DNA of 63,771 bases, counting the filler. It is 14 parts of 14 records of this genome, joined end to end, with 100 filler letters (N's around TTAATTAATTAA, not from the genome) between each part and the next. Parts side by side here need not be neighbours in the genome. Positions count along the whole stretch, not along the records: positions 46,952 to 51,971 come from SRR15195285_9388; 13 more parts are not named here. One strand, 5' to 3'. Positions 19,970 to 58,683 of the stretch are shown here, in pieces. Under the pieces are notes generated by a model, which did not search any database, had not been told where the DNA came from, and worked only from the letters and a program-made list of their open reading frames with translations. Both the position numbers and the translations under genes were made by a program. Each line of letters opens with the position of its first letter. The stretch's first letter is position 1.

Positions 19970-22900
19970 CGTCCCGAACATGGTGAACGGTATTCAGACT
20001 CGCGTCTGTGGCACCTTCTTCGATACCTGTGGCCCACGGTGGCAAATTACTGACTCGCATCACCCAGACTGCAATATGTGGACTCTCACGGCGCATCCAG
20101 AAGGGTGGCTGGGTGCAACGGTCCGCATTGTGGCCGATGATGATGGACAGGTACAGATTGATGATTTTCGATGGCAAGAAGATGCGTTTGGCGTCGACAG
20201 TTTCCTCGGCTCTGCCGAGAACCCACTCAGCCTCGCCCAGCGCACTTTCGCTGAAAGTGGCGCAGCGGAGATCTGTCTTCATCCATCTGAATGTTACACC
20301 ATCACGGTGCAAGGGCCTGCGACGGCTAGGTGGACACTGCAAGATGCTGTTGGTGAGACTGTGGCGGAGGGTACTGGCCCGGACGTGCAGCAAGTGTGTC
20401 CATGTGGGCACAACGGCGCGCCACAATGTCTCACTTGCTCAGTGGTGGTTCCTAATGGGGGTACGCTGGGCAACTGTCCGACTGATGGTGAGCTAGCGCA
20501 TGGCGCGTCATGCACTGCACAATGTAGTGGCATCTCTGTGCTGCCAAGCACATGCTTGGACGGCGAGCTGTTCAGCCCTTCGAGTTGCTGCAGCTCCGGT
20601 GAATTCTGGGATAGTGGACAAAATGAGTGTCAAGCCTGCCCTTCAGGAAAGGTGGATTCGGACCGCGACCCATTGACACCGTGCGAGGCGTGTCCGCCAA
20701 GCACTTACAGCAGCACAGGGGCTGCGGAGTGTACCGTATGTACAGCAGGCCGGTCGGCAACTTTGCCAGGGATGCACGACTGCGTTTCTGGGTGGTTCGC
20801 AGCAGATGGTTCACAGCGGATTGAAGGGGTCGCTGATTCTCAGCCGAGCTTTCGAATCCCGGAGCTCTCATCAATAGATGCAGATGGTTATGAGGTGGGG
20901 CCATGTTATGCGTTTACTCTTAGTTACGAGCTGTACGAAGTCCGTGGAGTAACGGTTCCGTGTGGGAGCCTGAACATTACAAGCAGTCAGTTTCGGTCGT
21001 GTCTTCCTGTTGCTGTTGATATTGGTGGCATGGGAGATCACGATAAAGCAGATGTTGTCATCGAACACAGCACGTTCGAGCAGAATGAGAAGGCAATTTC
21101 GATAGCACTGGGATCAACACTTCGAGTCTTTGCTTCTCAATTCTCTTTCAACGGCAACTTTGATGATGCACTCAGGGTCACTCAGGGCGGTGCATTGCAC
21201 GTATTCGGCAGAGCATCGGTGACTATTGAGGCATGTCAGTTCAGCAACAATAAGGCAGCATCGGGTGGAGCCATATACATTGAAGGAGGTGGTTACTATG
21301 GCACAGCCTCTGTATCCATTCTCCACACGCAGTTCTTCAACAATGTTCAATCATGGTGGAATGATTTATCGGCAGGGGGGACGCACATCTGGGCGGCCAG
21401 TCGGCCCGAGAGGTTTTACCTTTACAACAGCAAGATGTTACCCTTCGATGATGGGGCTGTTGCGTTGAACGCACCGTCAGGGTGCGAGCAGTACCCGTGT
21501 GCGCAGGGAGAAGCGTGCTCTTATCGGCACTACTCGCTACTTTGCACTCCCTGTGCTACGGGAACCATCAGTAAGGACGGGTTAACGTGCACAGTGTGCC
21601 CTCCTGGCGAAGGCCCTAATCCAGAGCAGAATGATTGTGTGGAGTGCTTTGGCAACACCGTCTCCGCGTCTGGGTTTGAATGTGCAGAATGTGGCCAAGG
21701 GACAGTGGCGAACGACGATAATACCGCATGCATTGACTGTCCTCCTGGGACAGTGTCTGTCGGCAGGAACTGCGTTTGCGCAGATGGATTCTACAATAGC
21801 AGCCACGGCAAGAACATTCTCAAGTGCTTTTCTGATGGTGAGCCGTGGGTCTCACTGCCTCGTGACGGGTCCACAGACTGCATATCGTGTGCAGATTCTG
21901 GCTGTCCCTCGCAAGCGGTTGGCTGCACCGGGGGTGAAGCACGACTTCTCCCGGGATATGCGTTGAGTGAAACTGCAGCTGCACAAGCAGTCCCACTGAA
22001 TGATGTTGTTGGGCAACGAAACATCTTCGCCTGCGATACCGACGGATGTCTAGGCGAGCATAACGACAGCGCTCCAATTTGTAGTGCAGAGTACAGTGGT
22101 CCGCTCTGTGACTATTGCGCTGACGGGTACTCGCGCCCTGGCTTCGAAGGGGAGTGTACTAAGTGCGCAGACGGGACGAACAGCACCTGGCTAGTCATCG
22201 CTGGAGTTTTGGCAGTGCCGCTGTTAGTAGGCGCTCTGTGGGTGGTGTCGGCTGTTGACTCTGAAGCTGGAAAGGCTGCCGTCGTTGTCACGTGCGTAAA
22301 AATTGCTATCTCGCTGGTGCAGGTGCTCACGCAACTTGAGTTCGCGTTGGACTTAGTCTGGCCAGGGTCGTTTCGGTACGCGCTCACTTTCTTGCCATCT
22401 TTCTGCTCCGCGTGCTGGACTGCTGGAAGGACTGCGACAGTAGATAAGTACTGTGCTTGTGGTGCTGACAGGTGGTTTGTGAACCTCTTGAAGGCATTCA
22501 ACTTGGACCTGCTCGGATTTGTTGATGTTGGCTGTGTTTCCACGTTTACATTCACGAAGAAGTTCGTCTTTGCCGTGCTCCTCGCTCCTGTCTTGCTCAC
22601 AGCCGTGGGCATCGTGTTCCCGCTACGCAAGAACGTTGACGGAATTGTCAACCGATGTGTCAAGATGGCACTATCCATCTTGTTTCTGATCTACCCTTTC
22701 GTGTCGCAAACCGTCTTTCAGTGAGTGCAACCCTTTCTTCAGAGCGATGGATTGTGTTGTCGTGTTGAAGCCTGTCTAATGGACTTCACTCGGAATATGC
22801 ATGTTTGGGTCATAGGAGTTTTTCGTGCCGTCAGCTCGATGAAAATGAAGAATGGCTCGATGTCGACTTTCAAATCGACTGCAACAGTGACAGCTACAGC

Positions 22901-26068: not shown

Positions 26069-26883
26069 CCAGGATCGATATCCTCGCAGCGGCTAGCAGC
26101 TGTCCAGCGCAGCGCGCAGCGGCCAGCATCGCGCGCGTGCAGCTCATGCTGCAGCTGGCTAGCCAGCAGCTATGGCAACCACAATGTGATTCCTGGGTCG
26201 GCGNNNNNNNNNNNNNNNNNNNNNNNNNNNNNNNNNNNNNNNNNNNNTTAATTAATTAANNNNNNNNNNNNNNNNNNNNNNNNNNNNNNNNNNNNNNNNN
26301 NNNGAAGTCTCAGATTATGGGGAACGCACAGTAGTACCGAGTACTAGTACAATCCATTCAGTCGCTGACCGCGGGGTGACTGAAGATTTTCGAAGCACTC
26401 GATCACCGACGGTCAGCATTTTAGTACATTACGGAATTGGGATACTGTACTCGTAGCCGTCTGTAACCAAAACAGTGTGATTGTCCGACTGTCAGAATTG
26501 TCACCCGGTTTGGATTTTTGCCACATCACTGAAGGCGATTGAGTGAGGTCATCATCGGCACGTTCGTGATTCGACACATCCCGGTGCGTACGGTACTATG
26601 TTATACGTGTATTATATATACTGAACTGCAATGTATTGCCATTCTGGCGTTCGATTCGGCTGCCAGTGCCGGCGGCTCTTCGCATTCGCCCAGCCACGCG
26701 GGCGCGCCGGCGCGCGGCCGGCCGCCGCTAGCGCGGCCGCCGCACGCGACGCGATGCATTCTCACAAGCACATCGATCCGGCGGCATAACGCGAGTCGTG
26801 GGAGTCATCGCGCCACCAGACGCACTGACAGGCTGGACGTGGGCGTACATTGCGACTCTACGTGCTCGGCTGGAGGAGCTAGG

Positions 26884-29800
26884 ATGTCAACAGAGGGCGG
26901 CAGTGATTCTACTGTGAAGTTCCTTGTGCTAAAGTTCGGCGGCACTTCCGTCAGCACTGCAGAGAACTGGAAGCGCATCGCCGCGATCATCAAATCGCGC
27001 GTCGCCGCCGGAGGGGACAACCTCAAAATCGTGGTGGTCCATTCTGCGCTGAGCGGCGTGACAGACAAGTTACAACTCTGCCTTGAACAAGTCCTCGAGC
27101 GACGGCGGTCAAGTGACACTGGAAATGGCCCGCACGACGCACAGCAGCCGGCTGGAACACACAAGCGCACGCTGGCGGCCATCATGGCACAACACCTGGA
27201 GCTGTCCAAGGCCCTGGGCATGCCGGAAGCCGAAGCACAAGTCATGTTGGCTCCTTACCACCAGGAGCTGCAGCGCATACTTGAGGGCGCAAGCCTCATT
27301 GGAGAAGTCTCGAGTCGCACCAAGGCTCGTGTCGTCGCAATGGGCGAGCTGCTCTCCACGACGATCGGAGCGGCTGCACTCAGCACAATGCTGCCCGACG
27401 GTATGTCTTGTTGGCTTGAGGCGCGGGAACTTTTGCGATGTGCCAAGGTCTCAACGAGCGTACGACTGCCGGAGGAGCAAACGTACTTGAGTGCCGCTTG
27501 CGACTATGATCCTGATACCGAGCTGCAGATACGGCTTGCGACCGATTCGTCTAGGGTGTTTGTGACGCAAGGCTTCATCGCATCCAATCAAGATGGGGAC
27601 ACCGTGCTGCTCGGGCGTGGCGGCTCTGACACGTCTGCAGCCTACTTCGCAGCAAAGCTCGAGGCATCGTACCTGGAAATCTGGACAGACGTCCCCGGGA
27701 TGTTTACTGCCAACCCTCGGCTCATCCCGGAGGCCAAGCTGCTGTGCACTCTCTCATTCTCAGAAGCGCAGGAGCTCGCGTCGACTGGTGCAAAAATTCT
27801 TCATCCACGCTGTATCGGTCCAGCTGTGAGTGTTCTTCCTTGCACTTTCGTTCCATACAGGTATACCATAAACTGATCAATCGTGTGGATATGGTAATGC
27901 TCAACGTGTTCTGCGTCAGGCTAAACACAACATCCCCATCAAAATTTGCGACACGTTTCGGCCACATCTACAAGGTACTGTGATCACGGCAACCTCAAGA
28001 GATAGTGGCGTCGTCAAAGCAATCTCTGTGCGGCATGGAATAACAATTGTCAATCTGGAGTCACTTGGCATGTGGCAGCAGGCTGGTTTCCTGGCAGATG
28101 CTTTCCGTGCGTTCAAGGCTCAGTCTATCTCTGTTGACTTAGTCGCGACGTCCGAGTCGACAGTAACGGCCTCTATAGACCCGGAGACGATTACCGAGGT
28201 GTGTACATCCTCACGTGCACGCTCTTGCACATCAAGAGAACATTGCAGACATATACCACGAGCGTGCGAGCAAACGCAGCGATGAAATTGTTGAATGCTT
28301 ACTCTGACTTGAAGGTTGCCTACACCATATTTGCAGGGTGCTTTAGACCGCGTCTCTAGCGACCTTGCCGACATGTGCTCAGTGAGCTTCACACACAACT
28401 GTGCATCGATATCTTTGGTTGGGCAGCAGATTCGAGCCACACTCCCATCTCTGGCCCCTGCTCTCTTGGCTTTCCGACGACACAAGGTCCACATGCTGAC
28501 ACAAGCCGCAAATGACCTAAACCTCACATTTGTGGTGGATAATGCGGTGGCTGACGATATTGCTATCGAGTTGCACCATAACTTGATCGAGCAACCGCCA
28601 GCAGAGGTTACGACCATGTGTACTTACGGAATGACTTGGAGTAATCTCAGCTCACCGAACTCATCCCCGCCCAACACCCCAAGGCAAAGCAGCTCCGAGG
28701 ACGTTCACACCGGAGACGTTGAGGATCAAGCGACACAAGATCCTTCTGCTTCTGCAGACACTGTAATGCGTGTAGGGTTTGTAGGGTGGAGAGGAATGGT
28801 TGGCAGCGTTCTACTGGAACGGATGGCAGAAGAGGGCGACTTTGACGGCACCTTCGAGCCGGTGTTCTTCACCACATCTCAGGTGGGCCAGCCAGGTCCA
28901 GTGGTTGGCACAGGTGGGCGGCACAAATCGTGCCCGTTGGTCGACGCAACTGACCTGGAAGCGTTGTCCGGCTGTGCAACGATCGTCAGCTGCCAGGGAG
29001 GCAGCTACACGGAATCCGTTCATCCAAAGTTACGCTCTACTGGCTGGAACGGCTACTGGATTGATGCTGCCTCGACATTGCGAACCCACGACAATGCCGT
29101 AATCGTGCTGGATCCGGTGAACGGACGCGTGATCGACGATGCGCTGGCAGGGGGAAAGATTCGCGATTTTGTTGGTGGAAATTGCACAGTCTCTCTGATG
29201 CTAATGGCACTGGGAGGCCTATTTGAGGCTGGCATCGTCGAGTGGGTCTCATCCATGACGTACCAATCCGCATCTGGAGCTGGAGCAAGACACATGAAGG
29301 AGCTACTGGAGCAAATGCGCCACCTCGGCAAGTTTGTCGATACTGCTGAGGAGCAGAACTGGTCAGCCCTTGAGCTAGAGCATGCTGTGCATGCCTGCAT
29401 GCGTACTACAGGGGAGGATGGAGACAGTGCTGGCGAGATCCCTTTCCCTGCCACAAATTTTGGGGCGCCGCTTGCGTGTTCGCTGCTCCCGTTCATCGAT
29501 AAACCGATGGAAGATGGGACGGGGCGATCCAAGGAAGAGTGGAAGGGAATGTTCGAGACAAACAAGATTCTCGGCCGAGGCTTAGCAGGAGCAGACGGTG
29601 ATGCTTCACAGCCGCAAATCCCAGTGGATGGTGCATGTGTCCGAGTTGGCGCGCTCCGTTGCCACTCCCAAGTAAGAATGCCCTACCCCCTTCGCCCGGC
29701 GACCCAGCCTCCCCCAGCGTCACCATATGGATGCAAGTGTCACCATACACATGCAATCGAATTCTGGTGACTTTTCTTTGAAAGCATATCAAGTACAGCA

Positions 29801-33395: not shown

Positions 33396-36300
33396 CGCTC
33401 TCACCTGCGCCTGCGGAAGAAGGCCATTTTGGTGGTGCCGTACGTTAGTATCGTGCGCGAGAAAGCGAAGTGGCTTGACCGTGTGCTGGGGTCGCACGGG
33501 ATACGTGTGCAAGAGTTTCACGGAATCACCGGCGGTGACATGGACAAGGCAGACATGGCAGTCTGCACGATGGAAAAAGCGAATGCCTTAGTGAACCGGC
33601 TCATGGCTGAAGGGCAGATGAATCAGATTGGCATCGTCGTCGTTGACGAACTGCACATGCTTGGCGACCAGTACCGAGGGTACTTGCTGGAGCTGCTAAT
33701 GACAAAAGTGAAATACGTCGGTCGCCATGATGAGATTCAGTTTGTTGGGATGAGTGCTACGCTGCCGAACATACAGGAAGTCGCGGACTGGATGGGGGCG
33801 GCGCTGCACGAGTCTAACTTTCGGCCAGTGCCGCTCGACGAGTACATCAAGTGCGGAACAAGAATCTTCCAGCACATCGGCGGCGGTGTGACTGTCCATC
33901 GGGCTGACCTGCCCGAAGCCCATCCCTCGGACAGAGATCATGTCGTTGCTCTATGTGTTGAAACGCTAAACGACGACAACAGCGTGCTTGTTTTCGTCGC
34001 CAGCAAAAAAGGTTGTGTGTCCACAGCACAGATGATTAGCAAGGTACTACCTCAGGTAAATCCGAACCCGCACTACGAGACAGACCCGAAGCACCTTGCA
34101 CTGCAGCAGAGGCGACTGGAGCTGGTCGACTCATTGAAACGCACGCCTGGCGGTTTGTGTCCTGTGCTCGAAAAGACGGTCCCTCACGGCGTTGCGTATC
34201 ACAACGCTGGGTTAACTGTCGAAGAGCGTGATGCGATTGAGTCTGGCTTCAGGGAAGGCATCATTCGAATCCTGACTGCAACGTCGACTCTCGCTGCAGG
34301 CGTCAACTTGCCTGCGCGCCGAGTCATCTTTCGTTCTCCATATATTGGGATTGAATTTCTTGATTCGACACGATACCGCCAGATGTGCGGTCGCGCGGGC
34401 CGGGCAGGCATTGATACTCGCGGGGAGTCATTCATCATTTGTGAAAACAAAGACTCCGTGAAGATAAACAACCTGCTCGTGGAGCCGGTGAGGGAGCTTA
34501 AGTCCTGCCTCAAAGAGGCGCCGAGTCCAGAGCATGGCGGAGCTCCCGTCACGAATGATGACAAGCGAGGTGTAGGGCTCGAGCGAGCAGTTCTCGAGGT
34601 CATCTCTGCTGGGGCTGTTACCACGGGTGATGAGGTTGAGCTGTGGCTGAAGTGCACCCTGCTCGCGCACCAGAATCCTTATCCGGATGTGCATCACAAC
34701 TGCAAGTGCGCACTGGAGTACCTTGGACGGCAAAACTTTGTATCGTATGAAAGGCTGACAAACAGCTTTTACGCCACTGGTCTGGGTCTCGCGACGTTTC
34801 AGTCGTCACTGCCGCCACGAGATGCCTACCGCGTAGCGGAGGATCTGCTTCAGGCACGAAAGCACTTCATTCTTGAATCGGATCTGCACCTGCTCTATCA
34901 GGTAACACCTGTGTCAGGCAACCCGCCTCTCAGCCAAAGCGTTTGGGAGGCGTATCCAGACCATCTAAATTCCCTCACAGAGTGTGACCGACAGGTTGCT
35001 AGCCACATCGGCATTGAAGAGCAGGTGGTCCGTCGGATTGCACGTCGGCCGCCCAAATTTGGTGCACCGGAAACAGAGGAGATTCTGCGATACAAGCGTT
35101 TCTTTGCGTCAATGATGCTGTCGTGGTTGGTCCAAGAGAAACCGGTTGACTGGGTTGCTGATCGGTATGAAGTGCCACGTGGTGCTCTACAGAACCTCAT
35201 GAGTGCTGCAGCAACGTTTGCCAATCTAGTGTCGAACTTCTGCCAGCAACTCAAATGGTGGGATTTGGAAGTCCTTACAGGCTCGTTCGCGAAGCGGCTA
35301 AATCATGGGTGCCAAGTGGACGTGTTACCTTTATGTGAAATCCCGGGGGTACAAGGCACACGAGCACGGGCGCTGTACAAAGCAGGTCTACGATCAGTCG
35401 CAGCAGTGGCAATGGAAAGCATAGAGAATATTGTAAAGGCCATTACAGCCGACCAAGCCTTCAAGCTGAGAAGCGGTCGGCGTGCATCGGAGGAGCGTCA
35501 AAAGAAATTGACGGAACGACAGAAGAGCGTGGACCTGGCTGCAGCTGTAAAAATTCAGGAGGGCGCAAAAAGTATCATCATGGCGCAGGCCGCTGAACTT
35601 ACGAAGCAATCAGTATATCTTCTCGGAGAAATGGACCCCACAACTAGTGTAGAGGAAACAGCTGGCTCGGCATCTAAAGCACAAGCAACAGCTCCACTCG
35701 CGGCCACGCTAAGTTCCGCAAGAACTGGGGACCCGCACATGCCCGTCGACCATGTGGGTGCTCAAGCTAGCGGTATAAGTGCTGCTGCCGATGCCACCGG
35801 CGAGTGTGTTGACTTCTCGGACATCGTTCGGTGTGGTGATCCTGACAATGAATGCATATGCGTGAAGGTGAAGGGGGACCAGGATTGTGAAAAGCTAATG
35901 CAGACAATGGAAACGGAAAGGCAAAAACGATTTTCTTGGTCGATCGTGCAAGGGTCGCGTCGTGCTGCGGCATTCACTGAAAATGGGCGTGGTGTGGACA
36001 ACAAAGGCGGTGCAGAGGTGAAATCCAGCAGCGTCGTTATTCATGGAATATGCCTGTGTTGGACGGACAAGAAGGTCTATTACGCTGACTGCATTGGCAA
36101 TTCTCAGCTTTGTCTGTGCCTACTCGATTACATCTGCAGCAGCCCATGCCAAAAAATTGCTTACTGCATGAAGTCTGCCTTGCACGCCATTGCGGCTGTG
36201 AGGGGTAATCATCGGCTCAATGGCACACCCATGGATCCGCAGATGGCAGCATGGATGATTGATCCAGATGCCGGAATTTCCAAGCTCGATATGAAGAAGC

Positions 36301-37943
36301 TGCTGAAAAAGTATGGGCTCCCCGCCGCATCAATGACACTTAATCGATGGGTGAACGCGGCTCTGGAGGCTACCTCCGCGTTGGCTCTTATGCAGAAGCT
36401 GGACGCCTTGCTAGAGCAGCGGAACTTGCGGCGGCAGTTTATTCACGGCATGATGCCCACGGTCGCAGTTTGGGTGGATATGGAACTTGCCGGTATTGGA
36501 TTCGATACCCGGCGCTCCCGTCAGCACGAGCAGCAAATTGTGGAGCGCACTGCTGGTTTGGAGCGCATGGCTCATAAGTTAGCAGGTAAGTCATTTGACT
36601 TGAGCTCGCCAAAACAGGTTGCGCAAGTCCTATACCAGCGGTTGGAACTTGAGCCAGACCCGAGGCAAAAAGTCAAAGAGGGAAAGTTGCCAACCACCAA
36701 TGCTGAAGCTCTTGAATACATGATGGAGCACTCGCCTCACCCCATCTTGGAGGTGATTACAAATCATCGGCAGCTGAGCAAGCTTCTAACGTCTTTCATC
36801 AGGCCATTACAACTCCACGCTGAACTCAACAAGACTGTCCAATCTGCTGGACTAGGTGATCGCATCCACCCGAACGTGTTGATGTTTGCAGTACCCACCG
36901 GCCGCATAGCCATGGACGACAACACTAACCTGCAGTGCATTCCGAACCCAAAAGAGCTCAAGCTCACAACACTGCCAGCACCAGAGGCAGATCAGAGTCT
37001 TGCCGATGCCGATGAGGCTGTGATTGAGAATTTCGACATAGCACTTCGTGAGACATTCGTCGCAAGTGAGGGCTGTGTGCTGCTGAGCGCAGACTACTCC
37101 CAGGTCGAACTGCGGCTGATGGCACACGTCTCTGGAGATGAAGAGCTGATTGCGGCTTTCAAGTCTGGTGACGACGTCTTCAAACAGATGGCTGCTCGGT
37201 GGGAGGAGTGTGATGTCAGCGAGGTCAGCTCCGACGCACGCAGCCGTGCCAAGACCTTGTGCTACGGCGTGTTGTACGGCGCAGGCAAAGCCACGCTTGG
37301 TAAAAATCTTGGAATGGACGAAGCAGAAGCAGAGCGACACAAGACAAGCTTGCTTAGTAAGTACCCTCGCGTGAGAGAATTTCACCGAATTGTCGAGTCC
37401 CAGTGCAAGCAGCGTGGATACATTGAAACCCTGGGCGGCCGGCGGCGTGATTTTCCTGCCATCGATTCGCGTAATGCTAATGCTGCAGCCGCTGCCATCC
37501 GCACGGCAGTGAACACCATCTGCCAAGGCAGTGCCGCCGACCTGATCAATGCTGCTATGCTGAAGATCTACCGCCATTTCTGTCACACAGATGAAGCCTA
37601 CACTGCCACCTGCACCACCCACGCCAGTGAGAACGAAGTCGGCAGCGGAAATTCTGGCGTTTCTGCCGCAACAATCGGTACGAATTCGCAGCTTAGTGCA
37701 TCTGGCGAGTCTTCAGCAACAGCAAGCAAGGCAACGGGTGCTGTGAGAATCGTGAACCAAGTGCATGACGAGCTGATGCTAGAGCTGCCAGAACACATGC
37801 TGGAAGAAGTAGCGGTGTTCGTTAAGTGCGCAATGGAAAGTGCAGATGATGACGTAACAGCACTGCGCGTGCCGCTCAAGGCCAACCTCAAATTTGGGAA
37901 GAACTGGGCAGCGCTGCGGGACTATATCAGCGCAAATGCCTAA
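33396..37943 (+). CDS. POLQ: DNA polymerase theta (SF2 helicase + family A polymerase), 5'-truncated, no intron in 4.5 kb
   Basis: VVVDELHML, VGMSATLPN, GVAYHNAGL, ATSTLAAGVNLPARRV, QMCGRAGRAG; polymerase motifs LSADYSQVELR, RSRAKTLCYGVLYG, QGSAADL, NQVHDEL. Confidence 0.95.
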   Translation, partial: RSHLRLRKKAILVVPYVSIVREKAKWLDRVLGSHGIRVQEFHGITGGDMDKADMAVCTMEKANALVNRLMAEGQMNQIGIVVVDELHMLGDQYRGYLLELLMTKVKYVGRHDEIQFVGMSATLPNIQEVADWMGAALHESNFRPVPLDEYIKCGTRIFQHIGGGVTVHRADLPEAHPSDRDHVVALCVETLNDDNSVLVFVASKKGCVSTAQMISKVLPQVNPNPHYETDPKHLALQQRRLELVDSLKRTPGGLCPVLEKTVPHGVAYHNAGLTVEERDAIESGFREGIIRILTATSTLAAGVNLPARRVIFRSPYIGIEFLDSTRYRQMCGRAGRAGIDTRGESFIICENKDSVKINNLLVEPVRELKSCLKEAPSPEHGGAPVTNDDKRGVGLERAVLEVISAGAVTTGDEVELWLKCTLLAHQNPYPDVHHNCKCALEYLGRQNFVSYERLTNSFYATGLGLATFQSSLPPRDAYRVAEDLLQARKHFILESDLHLLYQVTPVSGNPPLSQSVWEAYPDHLNSLTECDRQVASHIGIEEQVVRRIARRPPKFGAPETEEILRYKRFFASMMLSWLVQEKPVDWVADRYEVPRGALQNLMSAAATFANLVSNFCQQLKWWDLEVLTGSFAKRLNHGCQVDVLPLCEIPGVQGTRARALYKAGLRSVAAVAMESIENIVKAITADQAFKLRSGRRASEERQKKLTERQKSVDLAAAVKIQEGAKSIIMAQAAELTKQSVYLLGEMDPTTSVEETAGSASKAQATAPLAATLSSARTGDPHMPVDHVGAQASGISAAADATGECVDFSDIVRCGDPDNECICVKVKGDQDCEKLMQTMETERQKRFSWSIVQGSRRAAAFTENGRGVDNKGGAEVKSSSVVIHGICLCWTDKKVYYADCIGNSQLCLCLLDYICSSPCQKIAYCMKSALHAIAAVRGNHRLNGTPMDPQMAAWMIDPDAGISKLDMKKLLKKYGLPAASMTLNRWVNAALEATSALALMQKLDALLEQRNLRRQFIHGMMPTVAVWVDMELAGIGFDTRRSRQHEQQIVERTAGLERMAHKLAGKSFDLSSPKQVAQVLYQRLELEPDPRQKVKEGKLPTTNAEALEYMMEHSPHPILEVITNHRQLSKLLTSFIRPLQLHAELNKTVQSAGLGDRIHPNVLMFAVPTGRIAMDDNTNLQCIPNPKELKLTTLPAPEADQSLADADEAVIENFDIALRETFVASEGCVLLSADYSQVELRLMAHVSGDEELIAAFKSGDDVFKQMAARWEECDVSEVSSDARSRAKTLCYGVLYGAGKATLGKNLGMDEAEAERHKTSLLSKYPRVREFHRIVESQCKQRGYIETLGGRRRDFPAIDSRNANAAAAAIRTAVNTICQGSAADLINAAMLKIYRHFCHTDEAYTATCTTHASENEVGSGNSGVSAATIGTNSQLSASGESSATASKATGAVRIVNQVHDELMLELPEHMLEEVAVFVKCAMESADDDVTALRVPLKANLKFGKNWAALRDYISANA

Positions 37944-46851: not shown

Positions 46852-46951
46852 NNNNNNNNNNNNNNNNNNNNNNNNNNNNNNNNNNNNNNNNNNNNTTAAT
46901 TAATTAANNNNNNNNNNNNNNNNNNNNNNNNNNNNNNNNNNNNNNNNNNNN

Positions 46952-46993
46952 CACCACCACCAGCACCACCACCAGCAGCACCAGCACCAGCAG
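46952..46993. repeat. CAC/CAG trinucleotide repeat at the contig start
   Basis: caccaccaccagcaccaccaccagcagcaccagcaccagcagc. Confidence 0.85.
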
Positions 46994-47929
46994 CGTAGCA
47001 ATGAGCAAGGCCAATTTCAGAATTTCAGAAATTCGAGCAATGATCCGCACTTGCCACTTCGTACACTTCGCTCTGCACACTGCAGGCGCCGGAGGGTATT
47101 GCTCGTGACCTGGGTGGCGGCGGTACTATTGCTCATGAGGGTATATAAATATCCTATAGTAGATACATTGTTCGTCGACGTGCCGCAACGGGCCAATGGC
47201 AACGACGAGTCGACGACGTGGCAAGCGACACACGACAATCTGCATCGCCCTCACAGTCTGAGGGCGGGCCCACAACGCATCTAGGTACGCAGATCGATGC
47301 GAATGCAGACAGTCAGGTCACAACGATTGACACGAGTCAATCACGTGATGATGGTGACGCTAGCGACGTAGTTAGACCAGCGTTAGATTTTAACACTGTA
47401 TTTAGATCACTCTAGGCTAGCTATAACTAATAGGCACGGTCTGTGCTAAACGGGAAACCTAGCCGTAGATAGAGTTGCGTGTACGCATGTAATTAAAGCT
47501 CTCCTTCTCTCTCACACTTAGGAAGCGCACGGGGTGAGCACTAAAGTACTGAACTTTGATCGGAAGGAGCGCCGTGTGCTATGGCGTTTGCAATTGAGGC
47601 TCTGCCAGTAGCTGCTGGGATTCGGAAGGTAGGGTTCACCCGCGGCCATTTCTGTGCTCAGTACGCCGACGGATCTGGTGCATGAGAACATGCTCTGCGT
47701 GAACGGCAACTACTAATGAAAATCCGACTTTACTCAGAAACGAGGATCCCAAAGGGGACCGTAATCTTGTGCGAGGTCCCTGCTTAGTTGGAGCCAGCCA
47801 ATTGTGGAGCATCTTCGCGATACATCCAAATGCCTTAGTCTGGCGAGGTGGTGCAGCTGCGCCCTCGTCACCTCAAGTCAGCCCGTCTCGCTCGCCACTC
47901 CAGCCTGAGGTGCGCGTCTGCAACGCCAA

Positions 47930-50900
47930 CTACGCATATGGACACCCGCAGTCTGGCAGCACTTGCGGGAATGTTCCTGGTTTGCATACATTTCGAGAAG
48001 CAGGAGCAGGATAGCCGAAACTTTGTACGTTTGTGATCGTCACGTTGTACGTCATGTTCTGTCCGTCCATGCCAATTTTGCACGGCTGGCAGGATGGTTG
48101 GAAGAACTCCCACTTGTGGGTCACCGCGGATTGGACATGACACTTGCGAGTTGCCGTGTTGGCCTTGAAGTATGAGTAGACCCCGTTGATAGTAGACTCG
48201 TTGGAAAAGTATCCAGGCGGCATGCCTGCAGTGCCCTTCTTTGCACTCGCGAAGCCTGCGCCAATATCAGCGGTAGTCTCGCAGCCATAGCCATACAAAT
48301 CACGAAGGTGAAAAGCACCATTCTTCTGTGTGTGTGGCCCACTCATGAATGCTGCTTTCCCATCACGGCAGGTGATGTTGCGACCTGTGATGTTGCCCAC
48401 AAAGCGACCAGCGCCCTTTGCACCCGTCTCTGCCCTGAGAGTGACGCCCCCACTGCCGTCAAGATTCTCGAAGTCGATGTAATTGCCAGTCTGCATTTGC
48501 AGCAAACCGTACCCTGGCCAACCTCCGCTGGATGTTATGTTGGAGATCGTGCCATGCGAAGGGCCGCATGTGTGGTCTACAGCGCCAGAATCAAGACACA
48601 GCGCTGACAAGGTGCCTGCACACGGCAGCTTTTCGGCGCTGGTGATATTGTTGGCCAGCAAGACATTGACGTTAGATATGTGGAATAAATTGATGCAGCC
48701 GACCTGAATGCCCCGCACACGCCACGGACACCTAAGAGGCTTTGAGACGTCCATCAAGACGGGCTGTCCAGCTGGGGCAACGATTGAGATGTTGGTGGCA
48801 GAGGTTGCCAACTCTGGATCCCCATCGACGGCAATCAGCCCTGAACGAACAGCAGGCGCGGGAAACAGCACCACGTCTGCGGCGAACTTCCACACCACGT
48901 GTGATGTCGACAACACAACGTCGGCAATCATATAGCGCCCGGCAGGGATGCGGACACAGCCACCTGCTGCACCCAGCTTGTGCTGACAAGTCGCAAATGC
49001 AGTGCTGTCATCATGGTCGCCGTCCCCGTCTGCGCCGCAGTCTGCCTGCAAGTCCAGGCACGCATCCGAGCCACCACCGACGTGTACTAGAGTTGAAGCA
49101 CTATCAGCTGGTGGGATCCAGCTTAGAGAGTATAGACCGATGGCTAGCGAGCCAGGGCCATTCTTCTTGGAGCTGCGAAGCAGATGACAGCACATTAGCG
49201 AAAACAAGAACCGATACTACTTGGCACTATTCACTAGGAAGGAAGTGCGTCTCTCATAACCGTAGTATTCGAACATTCGTACTCACGTTGAGTGCCGAGC
49301 GATGAAATATCGCACAGTCGCAGCGTCACCTGGGACTCCCTCGTAGACGGGGGTAGGCTCTGCAAGAGCATCGCGTGAATCAATCGGCCAGTTAATCACG
49401 AACTGATTGTTGATACGGGATGATATCTTGCAGCTACCGAGTCACACACTCACCACCAGGTGCCGGTCCGTCGTCAGACTTGTTCTGCCAGTTAAGCGCA
49501 CCTGCGTAGGTCCAATTCAAGGCGTGTGGGTCGGTCTTAAGGTCGATGACGAAGTGAGGTGCAGGTCCTTGGGGCATCCCTGGCTTGCCGAATACCTTGC
49601 CGTGAAAGGCACACCAGATGTGCAGCTCGTCGACTCCCAGTGGACCGCGGAAGAACTCGCAATTTTCGTAGCCGTCCGGGTCCCATCCGGGCTGTGGTGG
49701 GAATAGTGGGTTGTTTGGTGCCTCACTGTAGGGTGGTGTCCACGAAGTAGGACTGTGTGGGAGGTAGAGACCTTCAGTGGCCGTGTTGAAGCTCGACACG
49801 CCCTTCGTCCAGTAGCCCTTTTGCCCACCCACGACCATTGCCCTGCCGGAGTCGAGTCGTCGTGCGTTCCAGCCGCCCGTCCAATTGGAAGCTGGGTCAC
49901 TCGTTGGGGTGGCAACAGCAGGAAATAGCCTCTGCCAGGGGCCGTCCGGCGACTTGGCAGAGGCAACAGCCTGAGCGCAAGTTTGCATGCTGCTTTGATT
50001 CGCACCGGAGGCGGAGTAAAACAGGTACCAAAGCTTTTCTTCGTCGCTGTAGATCGCTGAGGAAGAGAAGGTTCCACTATAGTCCCAGGCCTTTGGATCA
50101 CTTGAATGAGGGAGCGCAAGGCCATGTGATTCCCATGGCCCCAGGATCTCGGGCGCACTGTAGTGGTAGAGGTAGGCATCCCAGCCGGGCTTCGTCGAGC
50201 CATTCATGTGGTCCACCCAGAAATGCCAACGCTTGGTGACGGGGTCTTGGACCGCCGCACTCGGGTCGCGCAAGTTGCCGTGAGGATCGAACGCTATGGT
50301 TTTGACAAAGTTGAGCGTAGGGACCCAGTACTTGGAGGGTGGGGGTGGTACGGGGGCAGGACCCGCGGGCACCATGCCGGACGTGCAGTTGGGCCGCCCG
50401 CCTAAGTATTTACCGGCTTTGGCGCTCTTGAGCCAGCACATCTTCTGACCCTGGTATGCTCCCCCCGGTTGGTACATCGTGAACACAAAATGACCACAGC
50501 GTGGGTTGGCGCAGCAGGCTGCCGCGCAGTCGCTTGCAGTCGTGCCAATCATCTCACCTACATCTTTGCCGTTCTCAAAATTCTTTCCGTGGAGGTAAGT
50601 CGTACCTTGCAGGCACGTGCTTGGGGACGGCGAGGGTGGCGACAGGGCGGAAAGCGTCGCCATCTCCGCAGACGTGAGCTCGAACGAGAACACATCTAGG
50701 TCCTCTGTGATGTACTCCGGCTTGTGGGCGGCTGTCACTGCGCTGATGTTTTGCTGGATCAGCCAGCGAAAGGCCACCTGCGCAGCAGAGACCTTGTGCA
50801 CCTTGCCGATGGCGATCACCTCGGGAATATCTAGCACGCTGCTGTTGCTCCAGAGGCCTTGTAAGGGGCTGTACGCACTGTACGCAATCCCATGAGACTG

Positions 50901-51578
50901 GCAGAACTGCACTGTGGCGTCGTCCCCGCCGCCGCGAGTGTTATTCGTGTTGGCGACGGCGTGGTCACACTGGTTTACGGCTGGCACGATCTTAACTCGT
51001 GGGTCCGCTAGCATCGCTTCCAACAACGCTGAGTCAAAATTCGAGACGCCGATGGCCTTGGTAAGTCCTGCTGCCAGGCCAGCCTCAAGCTGCAGCCAGC
51101 GCAAGATGGTGAGCTCGGTGCCGTCAGCAGTCTCAGTGGACCGGCACGGCTCGTGCATAAGTGTCAGGTCCGTCCACGGCAGCTGCAGCAGGGCGTTGTT
51201 GCGTTCCATGCAGTCCTGCGCGTGAGCGCAGGCCATCTCCGGCTTCCTGCTGGTGGCAGCGCACGGCAGCTTCGTTGTGACGAAGATATCTGCGCGTGGG
51301 ATCTCCGGGTGGTCCTTGATCGCGGCCGCAATCTGCTCGTTGATCTGGTCCGTGTATCCGAGCGCCGTGTCCAGGCCCCGACCACCCTGGCGCAGAAACT
51401 CGGAGTAGTTGCTGTAGTGATTGCCCGCGCGCACGGCCTGTGAGGTGCCTCCGCAATTGATGTACGGCATCTGCGCGCCCGTATTGAGGCGGATGGTCGT
51501 CTTGTCCGCGCGGGAGGCGGTGGCATCTCCTGCGCCTGCCATCGCCACTACCACCAGTACGCGCAGGCTGTTCACCAT
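47930..51578 (-). CDS. Secreted polyprotein, 1146 aa: signal peptide - aldo-keto reductase - PAN/apple - GH117/GH43-like beta-propeller - GH82 iota-carrageenase-like beta-helix; introns 49360..49453 and 49173..49286
   Basis: Exons 51578..49454, 49359..49287 and 49172..47930 sum to 3441 nt in one frame; both donors are GTGAGT and both acceptors GCAG. AKR tetrad LDTALGY / TTKL / LMHEP and AIGVSNF; CAAACCANPRC...CWLK; RDPSA, AWDYSGTFSS, WYLFYSA; GYGLLQ, GGVTLRAETG, CRDGKAAFMSGPHTQKNG. Confidence 0.82.
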
Positions 51579-51617
51579 ACGGTTGGATCGGTCGCGTCAG
51601 GAACAAGAACTTTTCGG

Positions 51618-51657
51618 AATGTCGCAGCGTATAGCGGAAATGTCGCAGCGTATAGCG
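51618..51657. repeat. 19-bp direct repeat (period 21) upstream of the polyprotein start codon
   Basis: AATGTCGCAGCGTATAGCG at 51618..51636 and 51639..51657. Confidence 0.88.
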
Positions 51658-52071
51658 AGCGAAGCGCGCCCACGGCGCCACAATGTACGTATGAGGTGCA
51701 CCACCTCGCGCTGAGCGCGCGCGCCGCAGGCGGCGCTACATGCATACTATGAATAGTATGTACAGTACTATAAGCGCGCGCGCCAGCTTGCATGTCCACG
51801 AGTGCTATTATATACTATCGAATATTTGAATTGTATACAGAGGTGAGGCTCGGGTGCAGACCTGCACGCTGCAGACCCGGAAAGGCCTACTGTAGGGGAA
51901 AGCGGCGCCGGCGGAGTACGTATTCGAATAGTCAGTACGCAAATTCAGTAATAATTCACCAGCTGGCACGGNNNNNNNNNNNNNNNNNNNNNNNNNNNNN
52001 NNNNNNNNNNNNNNNTTAATTAATTAANNNNNNNNNNNNNNNNNNNNNNNNNNNNNNNNNNNNNNNNNNNN

Positions 52072-56635: not shown

Positions 56636-57263
56636 TAATGTTAAGCAGACGTCATCACACTGTGCGCGAGGTCAAGGCTCCTGCTAGCACCCACATGCCT
56701 TGCAGTACCTGCGCTGCTCGGGTTCAAAAGAGCACCTTGGGCAGCGTTCAACATAGCACAGCGCTCTAATACAACAGATTAGACTGAACAGTGCAGTGCT
56801 CAACGACCGGCGCCGCNNNNNNNNNNNNNNNNNNNNNNNNNNNNNNNNNNNNNNNNNNNNTTAATTAATTAANNNNNNNNNNNNNNNNNNNNNNNNNNNN
56901 NNNNNNNNNNNNNNNNGTAGAAACGCGAACGTATGGCGGTTGGGCCAGTGTGAGTAGTACTCCAGTAGATCTAGGATCCTACCGATCATCGTAATGTATC
57001 CACGGTCGATTGTCGATACTCTGCGAGTATTGGGTTTGGGATTCGGAGCGCAGCCGGCGACTGCGTATGCACCGCGTGCGGAGCGCTGGGGACTCCAGGA
57101 TTATTTAGATCTAACGCTGAATCGTGCATGATCGAGGGCAGCGCAGCGTTCGTTAAAAATTCGGCCTGCTGACCACAGTGCAGCGGCGACGAGGTCAGCT
57201 GCAGTCTTGGGCCGGGCGTGCGGTAGGGGCCTACACCGCGTGCAGTGTGTTCGCGCGCACTCG

Positions 57264-58683
57264 ATGGCAGCAGGCCCGCTCGCGCCGCTGGTGGCTCTGC
57301 TGCTGCTGGGTCTCCTCGGCACTCCCATAGTTTACGCTGCGAGGATCATCGTCTCCGGCGAGCGGTGGAGCGACACTGCGGGCGCACCCATCGAAGCGCA
57401 CGGCGGCTCGATCTGGCAGGATGCGACAACGAAGCTCTACCACTGGGTCGGTGAAACGCGCAAGGGTACGCCTCCGCAGCGGAACGAGGGCGTTGGCCTA
57501 TACTCTTCGCCCGACCTCGTGTCCTGGACAAACCACGGCAACGTGCTGCCAATGGCCGAGATCCAAGCCGTCACGAGCAAGGACTCAGCGTGGCGAGCAG
57601 TTGGTGGCGTGGCAATCATCGAGCGCCCAAAGCTCGCATACAACGCGCCCACACAGAAGTGGGTGCTTTATACCCACCTCGCCGATAAGACGTACGAAAA
57701 GTATGCAGCGCTGGGAGTCGCTACGGCCGATACAGTGACCGGTCCGTACACGTTCCTCCACACGCTCGAGCCATTTGGCGGTACCGAGCACGACCTTGGC
57801 ATGTTCCGCGACACCAATGGCACTGTTTTCCTACTATGTGGCACCCACCTGCCTGGTGTGGACGTCGGTATTGCGGCAATGTCCGAGGACTACACAACGA
57901 TTTCAACCCAGAAGCCAGTCTCCGCCCTCGCTGGCAGCCTGGAGGCGCCAGCGATGGCGCGTGGCCCAGACGGCGCGCTCTACTTCGCGCTCTCGCTGAA
58001 GACTGGCTACCGCAATAACGCGGGGGCACAGTACACCTCCACCAATGGATTACCCGGCCCGTGGACTCACAACGGCGCCATCTCACAGACATCGAACTCA
58101 ACGTTTGAATCACAGTCGACGTATATGCTCGAGCTGACTGCCGCCGACGGCAGCTCCAAGTGGATGTACATGGGCGATCGATGGCTCAACCCCAGCATCG
58201 CTCATGCCGCGTACGTGTGGGCCCCTGCACTGATGACGAAGACTCACATGCTGGACATCCAGTTTCATGAATCCTGGGACCTCGACAAGTACCTGAACTC
58301 TGATTTCTACGAGACGCTATCAGCAGTTGTGCAGCCAGCAGCAGCCACCCAACGGCGGCAGCTGCGAACCTGCCCCCAGCGCATTCCAAAGCCTGTTTAA
58401 CTTGGAGTGTGGCAATGCCCGGAAAGCCAGCAAGGGCGACTGTTTGCAGTGCCTCAGTAGTCAGGCGAGCTTTTCTGGGTACACTCGTGATTGTGCCTCT
58501 ACATTCGACGCCTGGTGTACGGGCACTCCACCGCCACCGCCGCCACCAGAAGTTTGCGATTGTGGGTATTACCGGGACGGTACTGGGTGTTCTCAAAGCG
58601 GTGGAGGGTGTGGTTGCATGGGCACGGGCTACTGTAATGTTGGTGGTCACTGCAAAAAGGTCGGGACATGCCCTGGTCATTGA
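57264..58683 (+). CDS. Secreted GH43_24-type exo-beta-1,3-galactanase-like enzyme with a Cys-rich C-terminal module; probable 46-nt intron 58289..58334
   Basis: WSDTAGAPIEAHGG, YHWVGE, YSSPDLVSW, IIERPKLAYN..TQKWVLY, GPY, DLGMFRD, LEAPAM, TFESQST, MYMGDRW. Confidence 0.85.

Follow-up and report, generated by a model that had tools for sequence, protein, structure and literature searches.

A putative recent fusion gene of a marine protist encoding aldo-keto reductase, PAN, propeller and GH82-like modules in one predicted chain

Introduction

Do two open reading frames (ORFs) on one short contig of environmental DNA encode a single protein, and what could be the role of a chain in which an aldo-keto reductase (AKR), a PAN/apple domain, a propeller and a GH82-like (iota-carrageenase family) domain are joined? 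This question is raised by a contig of 5020 nt (46952..51971), on which the gene studied here is the sole gene, within a 63.8-kb stretch of DNA, the whole of which is herein referred to as the window. The window is a chain of at least 14 short contigs, each approximately 3–7 kb in length, and not one stretch of a chromosome; the contigs are separated by spacers composed of 44 N + TTAATTAATTAA + 44 N, as at 46852..46951 and 51972..52071. Since the contigs are concatenated, the order of genes across the spacers has no meaning and neighbours give no evidence of linkage.

In a first-pass annotation, the two ORFs were proposed to form one spliced gene for a secreted polyprotein with a possible carrageenan pathway in one chain. 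The results described below make it very probable that the gene and its four modules are real and arranged in one chain. A wider reading, to which we give a little better than an even chance, is that an uncultured heterotrophic protist of marine origin carries here a recent fusion gene, the 1146-aa product of which would enter the secretory pathway and attack glycan by combined endo and exo action. The architecture is new, while its parts are of known kinds.

Results

Two open reading frames are joined into one spliced gene

The upstream ORF (49434..51578, minus strand) encodes 714 aa from an ATG start, and the downstream ORF (47930..49207, minus strand) encodes 425 aa from a TTG start. By joining three exons by coordinates, a frame of 3441 nt was obtained, which encodes 1146 aa and carries a single terminal stop. 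The elements of this gene model are as follows.

49454..51578, minus strand: exon 1, residues 1–708 and the first base of codon 709
49360..49453, minus strand: intron 1, 94 nt, GTGAGT...TTGCAG, phase 1
49287..49359, minus strand: exon 2, 73 nt, the conserved EPTPVYE...YFIAR stretch of the propeller
49173..49286, minus strand: intron 2, 114 nt, GTGAGT...TCGCAG
47930..49172, minus strand: exon 3, including the stop codon 47932..47930
47881..47929, minus strand: 3' untranslated region of at least 49 nt, on an oligo-dT RNA-library contig running from 48136 to 47881 with no differences

Stop codons are present in all three frames within both introns, and a CTAAT sequence is located at 49198..49194, 22 nt before the acceptor of intron 2; the intron coordinates, the GTGAGT...GCAG borders and this CTAAT were all found as annotated. 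The frequency of splice motifs was considered as evidence for the introns and dropped, because the counts of GTGAGT in the window, 12 on the minus and 18 on the plus strand versus 15.2 expected, are at the chance level. The case for the gene model therefore rests on homology.

In blastp comparison, the spliced product was aligned without a break across residues 708/709 and 733/734 with five homologues, P0004 (345–754), P0006, P0007, P0020 and P0025, because the conserved last 45 or so residues of the propeller are split over exons 1–3. Among these homologues, P0006 is an ORF labelled complete in an assembly that its source names a transcriptome. The C-terminal stretch of the propeller family reads ...GEPTPVYE.G.PGD..V.YFIAR...G.L.IGLYSLSW and is cut in three here by the two introns; the exon-2 peptide carries seven residues (E408, T410, P411, Y413, G419, D420 and R430 of P0004) that are invariant in an alignment of 22 sequences. 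In exon 3, the reading frame of the last propeller strand continues into the GH82-like domain. The downstream ORF has a single in-frame ATG upstream (49195), which lies inside intron 2, and no start ahead of the domain, in agreement with the earlier view that this ORF lacks a start of its own. With the frame open and homologues spanning both junctions, the proposal of one spliced 1146-aa gene is well founded.

The spliced protein contains 34 Cys and 18 N-x-S/T sequons, four of which are in the AKR, and thus the sequons are as frequent as had been noted. These numbers would fit a secretory route. The term polyprotein is avoided here, because it would suggest that the chain is cleaved, and nothing observed points to this.

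RNA-library contigs and the splice junctions

Contigs of four seawater RNA libraries from three studies were placed on the gene. Fourteen contigs could be aligned, 11 at an identity of 99% or higher; the segments covered are 51172..51546 in the AKR, 49509..49775 in the propeller and 47881..48903 in the GH82 part. One RNA contig, from a relative that is about 90% identical (7 differences in 74 letters), matches the window solely at 49287..49360, that is, at exon 2, and its loose ends gave an exon-1-like end and an exon-3-like start upon reverse complementation and translation by hand. Since this contig leaves the window sequence at the bounds of exon 2, the exon borders are marked to the base in the RNA of the relative. 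The marine or seawater labels of the 14 matching runs are based on small-share matches, the contigs of four of these runs having been examined, and the habitat claim is limited to presence in seawater RNA libraries.

Modular organization of the predicted protein

The order of modules proposed earlier, that is, leader, AKR with its D/Y/K/H tetrad, PAN, propeller and a domain of a beta-helix family, is supported by sequence searches. The segments are as follows.

51516..51578, minus strand: start codon and predicted signal peptide, residues 1–21, judged by eye
50634..51506, minus strand: AKR domain, residues 25–315 or thereabouts, Pfam PF00248
50376..50618, minus strand: PAN/apple domain, residues 321–401 or thereabouts, with Pro-rich linkers on either side
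49454..50339, minus strand: exon-1 part of the propeller, residues 414–708
49109..49172, minus strand: last conserved propeller strand, to residue 754, ...LAIGLYSLSW.., sharing exon and reading frame with the GH82-like domain
49061..49108, minus strand: short linker, residues 755–770, where similarity to the stand-alone GH82-like form begins
47933..49060, minus strand: GH82-like (iota-carrageenase family) domain, residues 771–1146

The predicted signal peptide is composed of a charged start, an 11-residue hydrophobic run and A-T-A ahead of the predicted cleavage point, and hydrophobic N-terminal leaders are located, as judged by eye, at the equivalent place in the stand-alone and AKR–PAN relatives. 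The PAN domain was detected with both PAN_4 (4.3e-7, 30.3 bits versus a cut-off of 27) and PAN_1 (1.4e-4, 22.0 bits versus 21.4), and the profile of its family matched the apple domains of factor XI at 9.6e-18.

The GH82-like domain matched CgiA (PDB 1h80_A) at 1.8e-13 as a single sequence (phmmer) and at 1e-90 as a profile of the window sequence and 10 relatives, over chain positions 9–284 and 336–444, so that the annotated iota-carrageenase-like domain is confirmed by sequence as a homologue of the CgiA catalytic core. The residues kept include GYG at 953–955, Q958, R979, E981 (at the position of the GH82 proton donor) and H1013. In the available part of PMC3669377, G, Y, R, Q, E and H are given as the strictly or highly conserved residues of the -1/+1 subsites of GH82, and all the residues so reported are present in the window protein, together with the sulfate-contacting Tyr and Arg. 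Chain positions 285–335 of CgiA (about 52 residues) have no counterpart in the family profile. We take this segment to be the domain A lid, and its lack of a counterpart suggests a GH82-like domain without that lid.

The propeller, by prediction a glycosidase of the five-blade type with a distant relationship to GH117/GH43, carries the motifs RDPS (437–440), DSGRA (576–580) and YENCEFF (637–643), the last of which is invariant in its family. When a propeller-only profile was compared with PDB, the top eight matches were 4u6d, 3r4y, 3p2n, 5ta7, 4u6b and 4ak5-7 (E 2.2e-6 to 1.4e-3), all of which we take to be GH117 entries, followed by GH43 and GH32. These include Zg3615/Zg3597 (4U6D, 4U6B) and the alpha-1,3-(3,6-anhydro)-L-galactosidases AhgA (3P2N), SdNABH (3R4Y) and PpGH117 (4AK5); three of the eight chains (entries 3p2n, 4ak5-4ak7) are named anhydro-galactosidases in the titles of their depositors. 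A genuine bacterial GH117 was aligned with the propeller profile by hhalign at 93% probability over 187 columns. In this alignment, D438 (RDPS) and D576 (DSGRA, blade 3), both invariant in 22 family members, are matched to the RRDPS and HDP motifs, which by hand counting presumably hold Asp90 (the general base) and Asp245. Among propellers of the GH43/32/117 type, the domain probably forms a family of its own. The earlier label of a GH117/43-like propeller stands in that the nearest solved relatives are GH117, and needs qualification in that the domain falls below the Pfam GH43 cut-off and the GH117 match reaches just E of about 1e-6.

Probable origin of the fusion

Each part of the gene has close relatives in which the other parts are separate. 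P0370, labelled Helgoeca nana, is a complete AKR–PAN protein of 419 aa that is 80% identical to window residues 27–404 and ends 7 residues after PAN. PAN–propeller proteins of about 450–490 aa have their own leaders and end just past ...LYSLSW.. in the relatives. When clustered at 90% identity, the exon-3 ORF falls in a group of 11 members, seven of which are stand-alone GH82-like proteins with their own signal peptides; one of the stand-alone forms, P0357, is 89% identical (347/391) to the window domain, to which it can be aligned from the residues that directly follow the cleavage site of its signal peptide. A propeller tail in place of the signal peptide was found in two of the 11 members only, the window ORF and an ORF on a 4662-nt contig of another assembly, which also carries the 714-aa upstream ORF and differs from the window by single residues. 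One further member is a 275-aa fragment, its N-terminus missing, with the residues of this second allele, and another is of 97 aa.

These comparisons altogether indicate that the gene is a fusion recently formed, on the evidence of the sequences, from three units still separate in relatives (AKR–PAN, propeller and GH82-like), and that the signal peptide of the GH82-like unit was apparently replaced by the propeller end during joining. The nearest named relatives of the parts are in transcriptomes of acanthoecid choanoflagellates and single-cell assemblies labelled Picozoa. The modules also appear in other protist fusions (GH27+propeller, PL+PAN+propeller, GH82-like+GHL15, GH31+AKR and PAN+AKR). 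The GHL15 case, P0183/P0178 (841 and 847 aa; Picozoa-labelled and JGI records), consists of a signal peptide, a GH82-like domain and a C-terminal GHL15-type putative glycosidase (Pfam 1.3e-7), and represents a second, different protist GH82-like fusion.

The same domain order was found solely in this gene and one near-identical copy, in accord with the first-pass annotation, to which no description of this architecture was known. In the literature searched, no relevant work was found on GH82 in eukaryotes, GH82/GH117 in protists, choanoflagellate carrageenase or Picozoa carbohydrate-active enzymes (CAZymes). When metagenome contigs were scanned with the GH82-like protein as query, none of 543 pattern matches was confirmed.

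A number of observations tell against a fused, spliced gene. No RNA-library contig of the four runs bridges either splice junction or the joint between propeller and GH82 part, contig depth being zero at 48904..49286 and 49776..51171, and one contig (49380..49530) is unspliced from exon 1 into intron 1. The unfused GH82-like form was recorded on 18, 24 and several single contigs, while the fused form is in two assemblies only. An AKR is present in one of 25 propeller relatives, which is the near-identical copy P0003, the others being without this architecture, and an AKR or GH82-like part beside the propeller was found in none of 16 related metagenome loci. None of the long GH82-like proteins checked has the same architecture, all of them being bacterial with CBM96, Big_2, fn3 or T9SS modules, and a search for longer fused GH82-like proteins found none, although this search is weak in that it also missed the known 841- and 847-aa forms.

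The zero cover of RNA at the joints gives no verdict either way on splicing or on the fusion joint, and the unspliced contig could be pre-mRNA, a retained intron or library DNA.

The alternative raised by these observations is that the modules are real and their arrangement in one chain is an assembly chimera of separate AKR–PAN, PAN–propeller and signal-peptide GH82-like genes. Short contigs make up the window, and that of the gene has just 5020 nt; all three units are separate in close relatives at 80–89% identity; and the larger number of contigs with the unfused GH82-like form and the lack of RNA contigs over the joints, both noted above, are in keeping with a chimera. The G+C content at third codon positions is 0.78 for AKR, 0.57 for PAN, 0.66 for propeller and 0.60 for GH82, which is near the 0.55–0.72 of other ORFs save for the AKR, and this measure, like codon usage, was set aside as evidence on a chimera. 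Against a chimera, a single 4662-nt contig of the second assembly carries both ORFs and differs from the window in some residues, no stop or frame shift occurs at the joints, and a JGI fragment shares an allele of the fused form in the GH82 part. Moreover, the last propeller strand lies directly upstream of the GH82 part, which begins where the mature stand-alone protein begins; this has the look of a true fusion and is unlikely for a random mis-join. We therefore regard a chimera as improbable, and a genuine fusion gene is taken as the basis of what follows.

Bacterial relatives of the GH82-like and propeller modules

At E<=1e-3, 416 representatives of GH82-like sequences were collected. The 12 eukaryote-like sequences group together on a long branch (SH-aLRT 100), and 31 bacterial sequences fall outside this clade; the eukaryote-like labels are those of the analyst, and only one cluster has eukaryote names. 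The bacterial hosts are marine Bacteroidota, Planctomycetota, Verrucomicrobiota, Kiritimatiellota, Latescibacterota and others. Among 81 ORFs (250 aa or longer) around seven bacterial GH82-like genes, 24 sulfatases, five ORFs with lambda-carrageenase domains and five GH2 were identified.

The propeller profile matched 12 ORFs in seven of 73 bacterial GH82-like loci within 10 kb, of which four directly adjoin the GH82-like gene, these counts being without a random-gene baseline. All eight of the ORFs tested gave GH43-type matches in Pfam. That of L028, the sole one compared with solved structures, is a true GH117 (4u6d, 2.2e-153); we know of no substrate for 4u6d. The GH117-type genes directly beside GH82-like genes are in L028, L043, L053 and L063 (Puniceicoccaceae and Pirellulaceae), and further propeller-profile matches within about 7 kb are in L068 (Victivallales) and L037 (Latescibacterota). 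The pair fused in the present gene is thus a neighbour pair in some bacteria, and the earlier proposal that an endo-type GH82-like module is coupled with the propeller gains independent support from these seven loci.

The aldo-keto reductase module

The AKR domain gave 1.5e-27 with Pfam PF00248 (96.8 bits versus a cut-off of 24) and 1.6e-25 with aldose reductase in PDB. Upon alignment to AKR1B1, the tetrad was located at D70, Y75, K103 and H142. The tetrad and the cofactor motifs GVSNF and NQ are invariant in 25 of 25 rows, which argues for selection on catalysis. The domain falls in a protist clade, the stand-alone members of which all have hydrophobic leaders (by eye) and a conserved N-Y-S sequon. 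Members of the same leader-bearing clade are also fused behind a GH31 fragment (P0275, 475 aa) and an N-terminal PAN (P0240, 397 aa), and distant members are found in Emiliania huxleyi (P0294, 39% identity). Yeast aldose reductase reportedly reduces anhydrogalactose. In our literature searches, no paper was found that uses the phrases 'secreted' or 'extracellular aldo-keto reductase', or that links AKR with anhydrogalactose.

Other features disfavour a working redox enzyme. Residues 281–285 are VTAAH where canonical AKRs have [IL]PKS; Lys262 and Ser263 of AKR1B1 are replaced by Ala-Ala and Arg268 by Tyr, and these three residues are, we assume, the NADPH 2'-phosphate site. The Lys/Ser of [IL]PKS is replaced in all 22 rows of the protist clade and present in all three outgroup AKRs. 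Sequons and extra cysteines occur inside the fold, the AKR profile matches two of the 73 bacterial GH82-like loci and is adjacent in neither, and to our knowledge there is no supply of NAD(P)H or other cofactor outside the cytosol, in the secretory or extracellular space. The domain might accordingly be a cofactor-free binding or scaffold domain, or might be split off at the Pro-rich linker, the functional unit then being PAN, propeller and GH82-like domain. This is possible, though we place it on the unlikely side, because the tetrad and cofactor motifs are kept throughout and members of the clade have repeatedly been joined to modules related to glycans, as with PAN, with GH31 and in this gene. 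With the AKR as an enzyme, the sequence points to a catalytically competent domain of altered cofactor preference, in a compartment without known cofactor supply.

Other contigs and features of the window

On the other contigs of the window, the genes are of common eukaryotic types (kinases, FYVE, SAM, teneurin-type EGF and ion channels), and further ORFs are VPS13-like, GH43_24-like (57207..58400) and PolQ-like. The neighbourhood was rejected as evidence, the GH43_24-like ORF and the other genes being on different contigs. The GH43_24-like ORF (plus strand) has a GH43 domain (Pfam 2.5e-12) and its best solved relatives are the 'beta-glucanase' 6euf (1.3e-39) and galactan 1,3-beta-galactosidases 7bys (2.9e-31); the idea that it is a paralogue of the fusion-gene propeller was dropped at an hhalign probability of just 51%. 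One of the 20 listed window ORFs matches the alpha-L-rhamnosidase six-hairpin domain (Bac_rhamnosid6H, 1.3e-30), and ORF 19980..22724 has a Beta_helix match (3.2e-7); glycan-active genes are abundant in this set of contigs.

The ORF at 33429..37943 (plus strand) has helicase, POLQ helical and family-A polymerase domains and is of the DNA polymerase theta type. An acetylglutamate-kinase-type ORF (26539..27876, plus strand; AA_kinase, 1.1e-38) is followed 440 nt on, on the same strand, by a semialdehyde-dehydrogenase-type ORF (28316..29770), and the two may be exons of one ARG5,6-like fused gene. On the contig of the fusion gene, a 21-nt unit (CGCTATACGCTGCGACATT + 2 nt) is present in two tandem copies at 51657..51616 (minus strand), 38–79 nt upstream of the ATG, and is possibly a promoter element.

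Discussion

The mechanism best supported by the present results, to which we give about an even chance, is that the chain acts on a sulfated galactan-type glycan by endo and exo action. The GH82-like domain would cleave the polysaccharide internally, the tethered propeller would trim sugars off the new chain ends, and PAN would anchor the protein to the glycan or to a surface. The AKR would act on the released aldehyde-type sugar, which is the least certain step because no cofactor source is evident. Digestion could take place in a vacuole or outside the cell.

Some of the results are at odds with this mechanism. The general base of CgiA_Af, Asp247 according to the accessible text of the review PMC13514251, is replaced by G983 here, Gly also being the consensus of 40 sequences (...TLRLETG...); Asp247 is not among the strictly conserved GH82 residues listed in the part of PMC3669377 available. 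The propeller scores 15.4 bits with Pfam GH43 (PF04616), below the cut-off of 32.2 (E 0.012), and the profile matches to the top PDB entries cover about 135 of 323 positions, in blades 1–3 only. The GH117 acid dyad His302/Asp320 and Glu303 are described in the part of PMC11574756 that was accessible; the GH117 alignments end before the His302/Glu303 region, which is left unaligned. The chain contains no sulfatase, and the RNA is from open-seawater libraries, where red-seaweed carrageenan is no obvious substrate.

Part of this evidence would be accounted for if the gene model is right and the family names mislead, the substrate being another anionic glycan and not a red-algal galactan. Candidates are exopolymers of prey or phytoplankton, fucose- or galactofuranose-containing chains, and the extracellular matrix of the organism itself. 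PAN domains are common in adhesion proteins, the propeller is just distantly GH117-like, a long branch separates the protist GH82-like clade from the 31 bacterial sequences, Asp247 is not conserved, and the transcripts are from seawater plankton libraries. The excerpt of bioRxiv 10.64898/2026.05.19.726164 at hand describes GH117 as the agar-type (L-anhydrogalactose) family with other reported activities, including beta-D-galactofuranosidase and alpha-L-fucosidase. On the other hand, iota-carrageenan is the only substrate of the GH82 enzymes characterised to date, as stated in the part of PMC12549532 available, the sulfate-contacting Tyr and Arg are kept, the bacterial relatives lie among sulfatase, lambda-carrageenase and GH2 genes, and the fusion partners elsewhere include alpha-galactosidase. 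We consider a different anionic glycan unlikely, and retain a sulfated galactan-type glycan as the preferred substrate.

The stronger claim of a carrageenan pathway in one chain is not sustained. In the portion of PMC5698469 accessible, this pathway proceeds by S1 sulfatases, then GH127/GH129-like 3,6-anhydro-D-galactosidases and then the DauA dehydrogenase, and all of these are outside the chain, while GH117 is a family of the agar side.

If the fusion is real and transcribed, enzymes of this kind would be shown to occur in eukaryotic grazers, which probably obtained them from bacteria. The breakdown of marine sulfated algal polysaccharides is credited almost wholly to bacteria, and GH82 and GH117 are treated as bacterial in those parts of their literature that were accessible. 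The fusion would be a 'Rosetta stone' for GH82-like and GH117-like enzymes acting on the same substrate, which in turn would give a lead on the substrates of uncharacterised bacterial clades. It also points to a secretory-pathway AKR clade with unexplained chemistry and cofactor supply, and offers a clean case of very recent domain fusion, because the unfused parents are still recognisable at 80–89% identity. A bolder and rather doubtful proposal is that the gene is the protist counterpart of a bacterial polysaccharide-utilisation locus, built by gene fusion and not by clustering, in which a GH82/GH117-type endo–exo pair that bacteria keep as neighbouring genes is combined with a leader-bearing, glycosylated AKR of a clade not described before, which has lost its NADPH 2'-phosphate site and acts on sugar aldehydes in a food vacuole or outside the cell. 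Should this be true, protists would directly turn over sulfated algal glycans in the open sea.

Comparison with known systems

A system of the same logic is the carrageenan regulon of Zobellia galactanivorans, which, in the part of PMC5698469 seen, likewise leads from an endo-carrageenase through exo-glycosidases to sugar redox. There, separate genes are employed (GH16/GH82, S1 sulfatases, GH127/GH129-like D-anhydrogalactosidases and DauA–D) versus one chain here; of these steps, the GH82-type one alone is matched by a member of its family in the present protein, and the redox module is an AKR and not a DauA-type dehydrogenase.

With CgiA of Alteromonas fortis (1H80, 1KTW and 3LMW), the GH82-like domain has in common the predicted equivalents of Gln222, Glu245 and His281, the Gly-Tyr-Gly and the sulfate-contacting Arg. 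Unlike CgiA, it is eukaryotic, spliced and fused behind three modules, has Gly for Asp247, is without a counterpart of chain 285–335, and is cysteine-rich with N-glycosylation sequons in its C-terminal part. Multi-modular bacterial GH82-like proteins also combine a GH82-like domain with binding or sorting modules, as here, whereas none of the eight long bacterial forms checked has a second glycosidase propeller, PAN or AKR.

GH117 enzymes, as the best solved relatives of the propeller profile, appear to share its Asp pair, and in bacteria are encoded beside GH82-like genes, a pairing that is fused in this gene. The propeller differs from them in its own conserved C-terminal stretch (EPTPVYE...YFIAR...LYSLSW), which is outside every GH117 match, the similarity being marginal (E about 1e-6) and confined to blades 1–3. 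The AKR module would share with its superfamily, as represented by human aldose reductase AKR1B1 and bacterial DkgA, a full-length fold match, the tetrad and the nicotinamide-side motifs, and is distinguished from both by a leader peptide, sequons, extra cysteines and an altered 2'-phosphate site.

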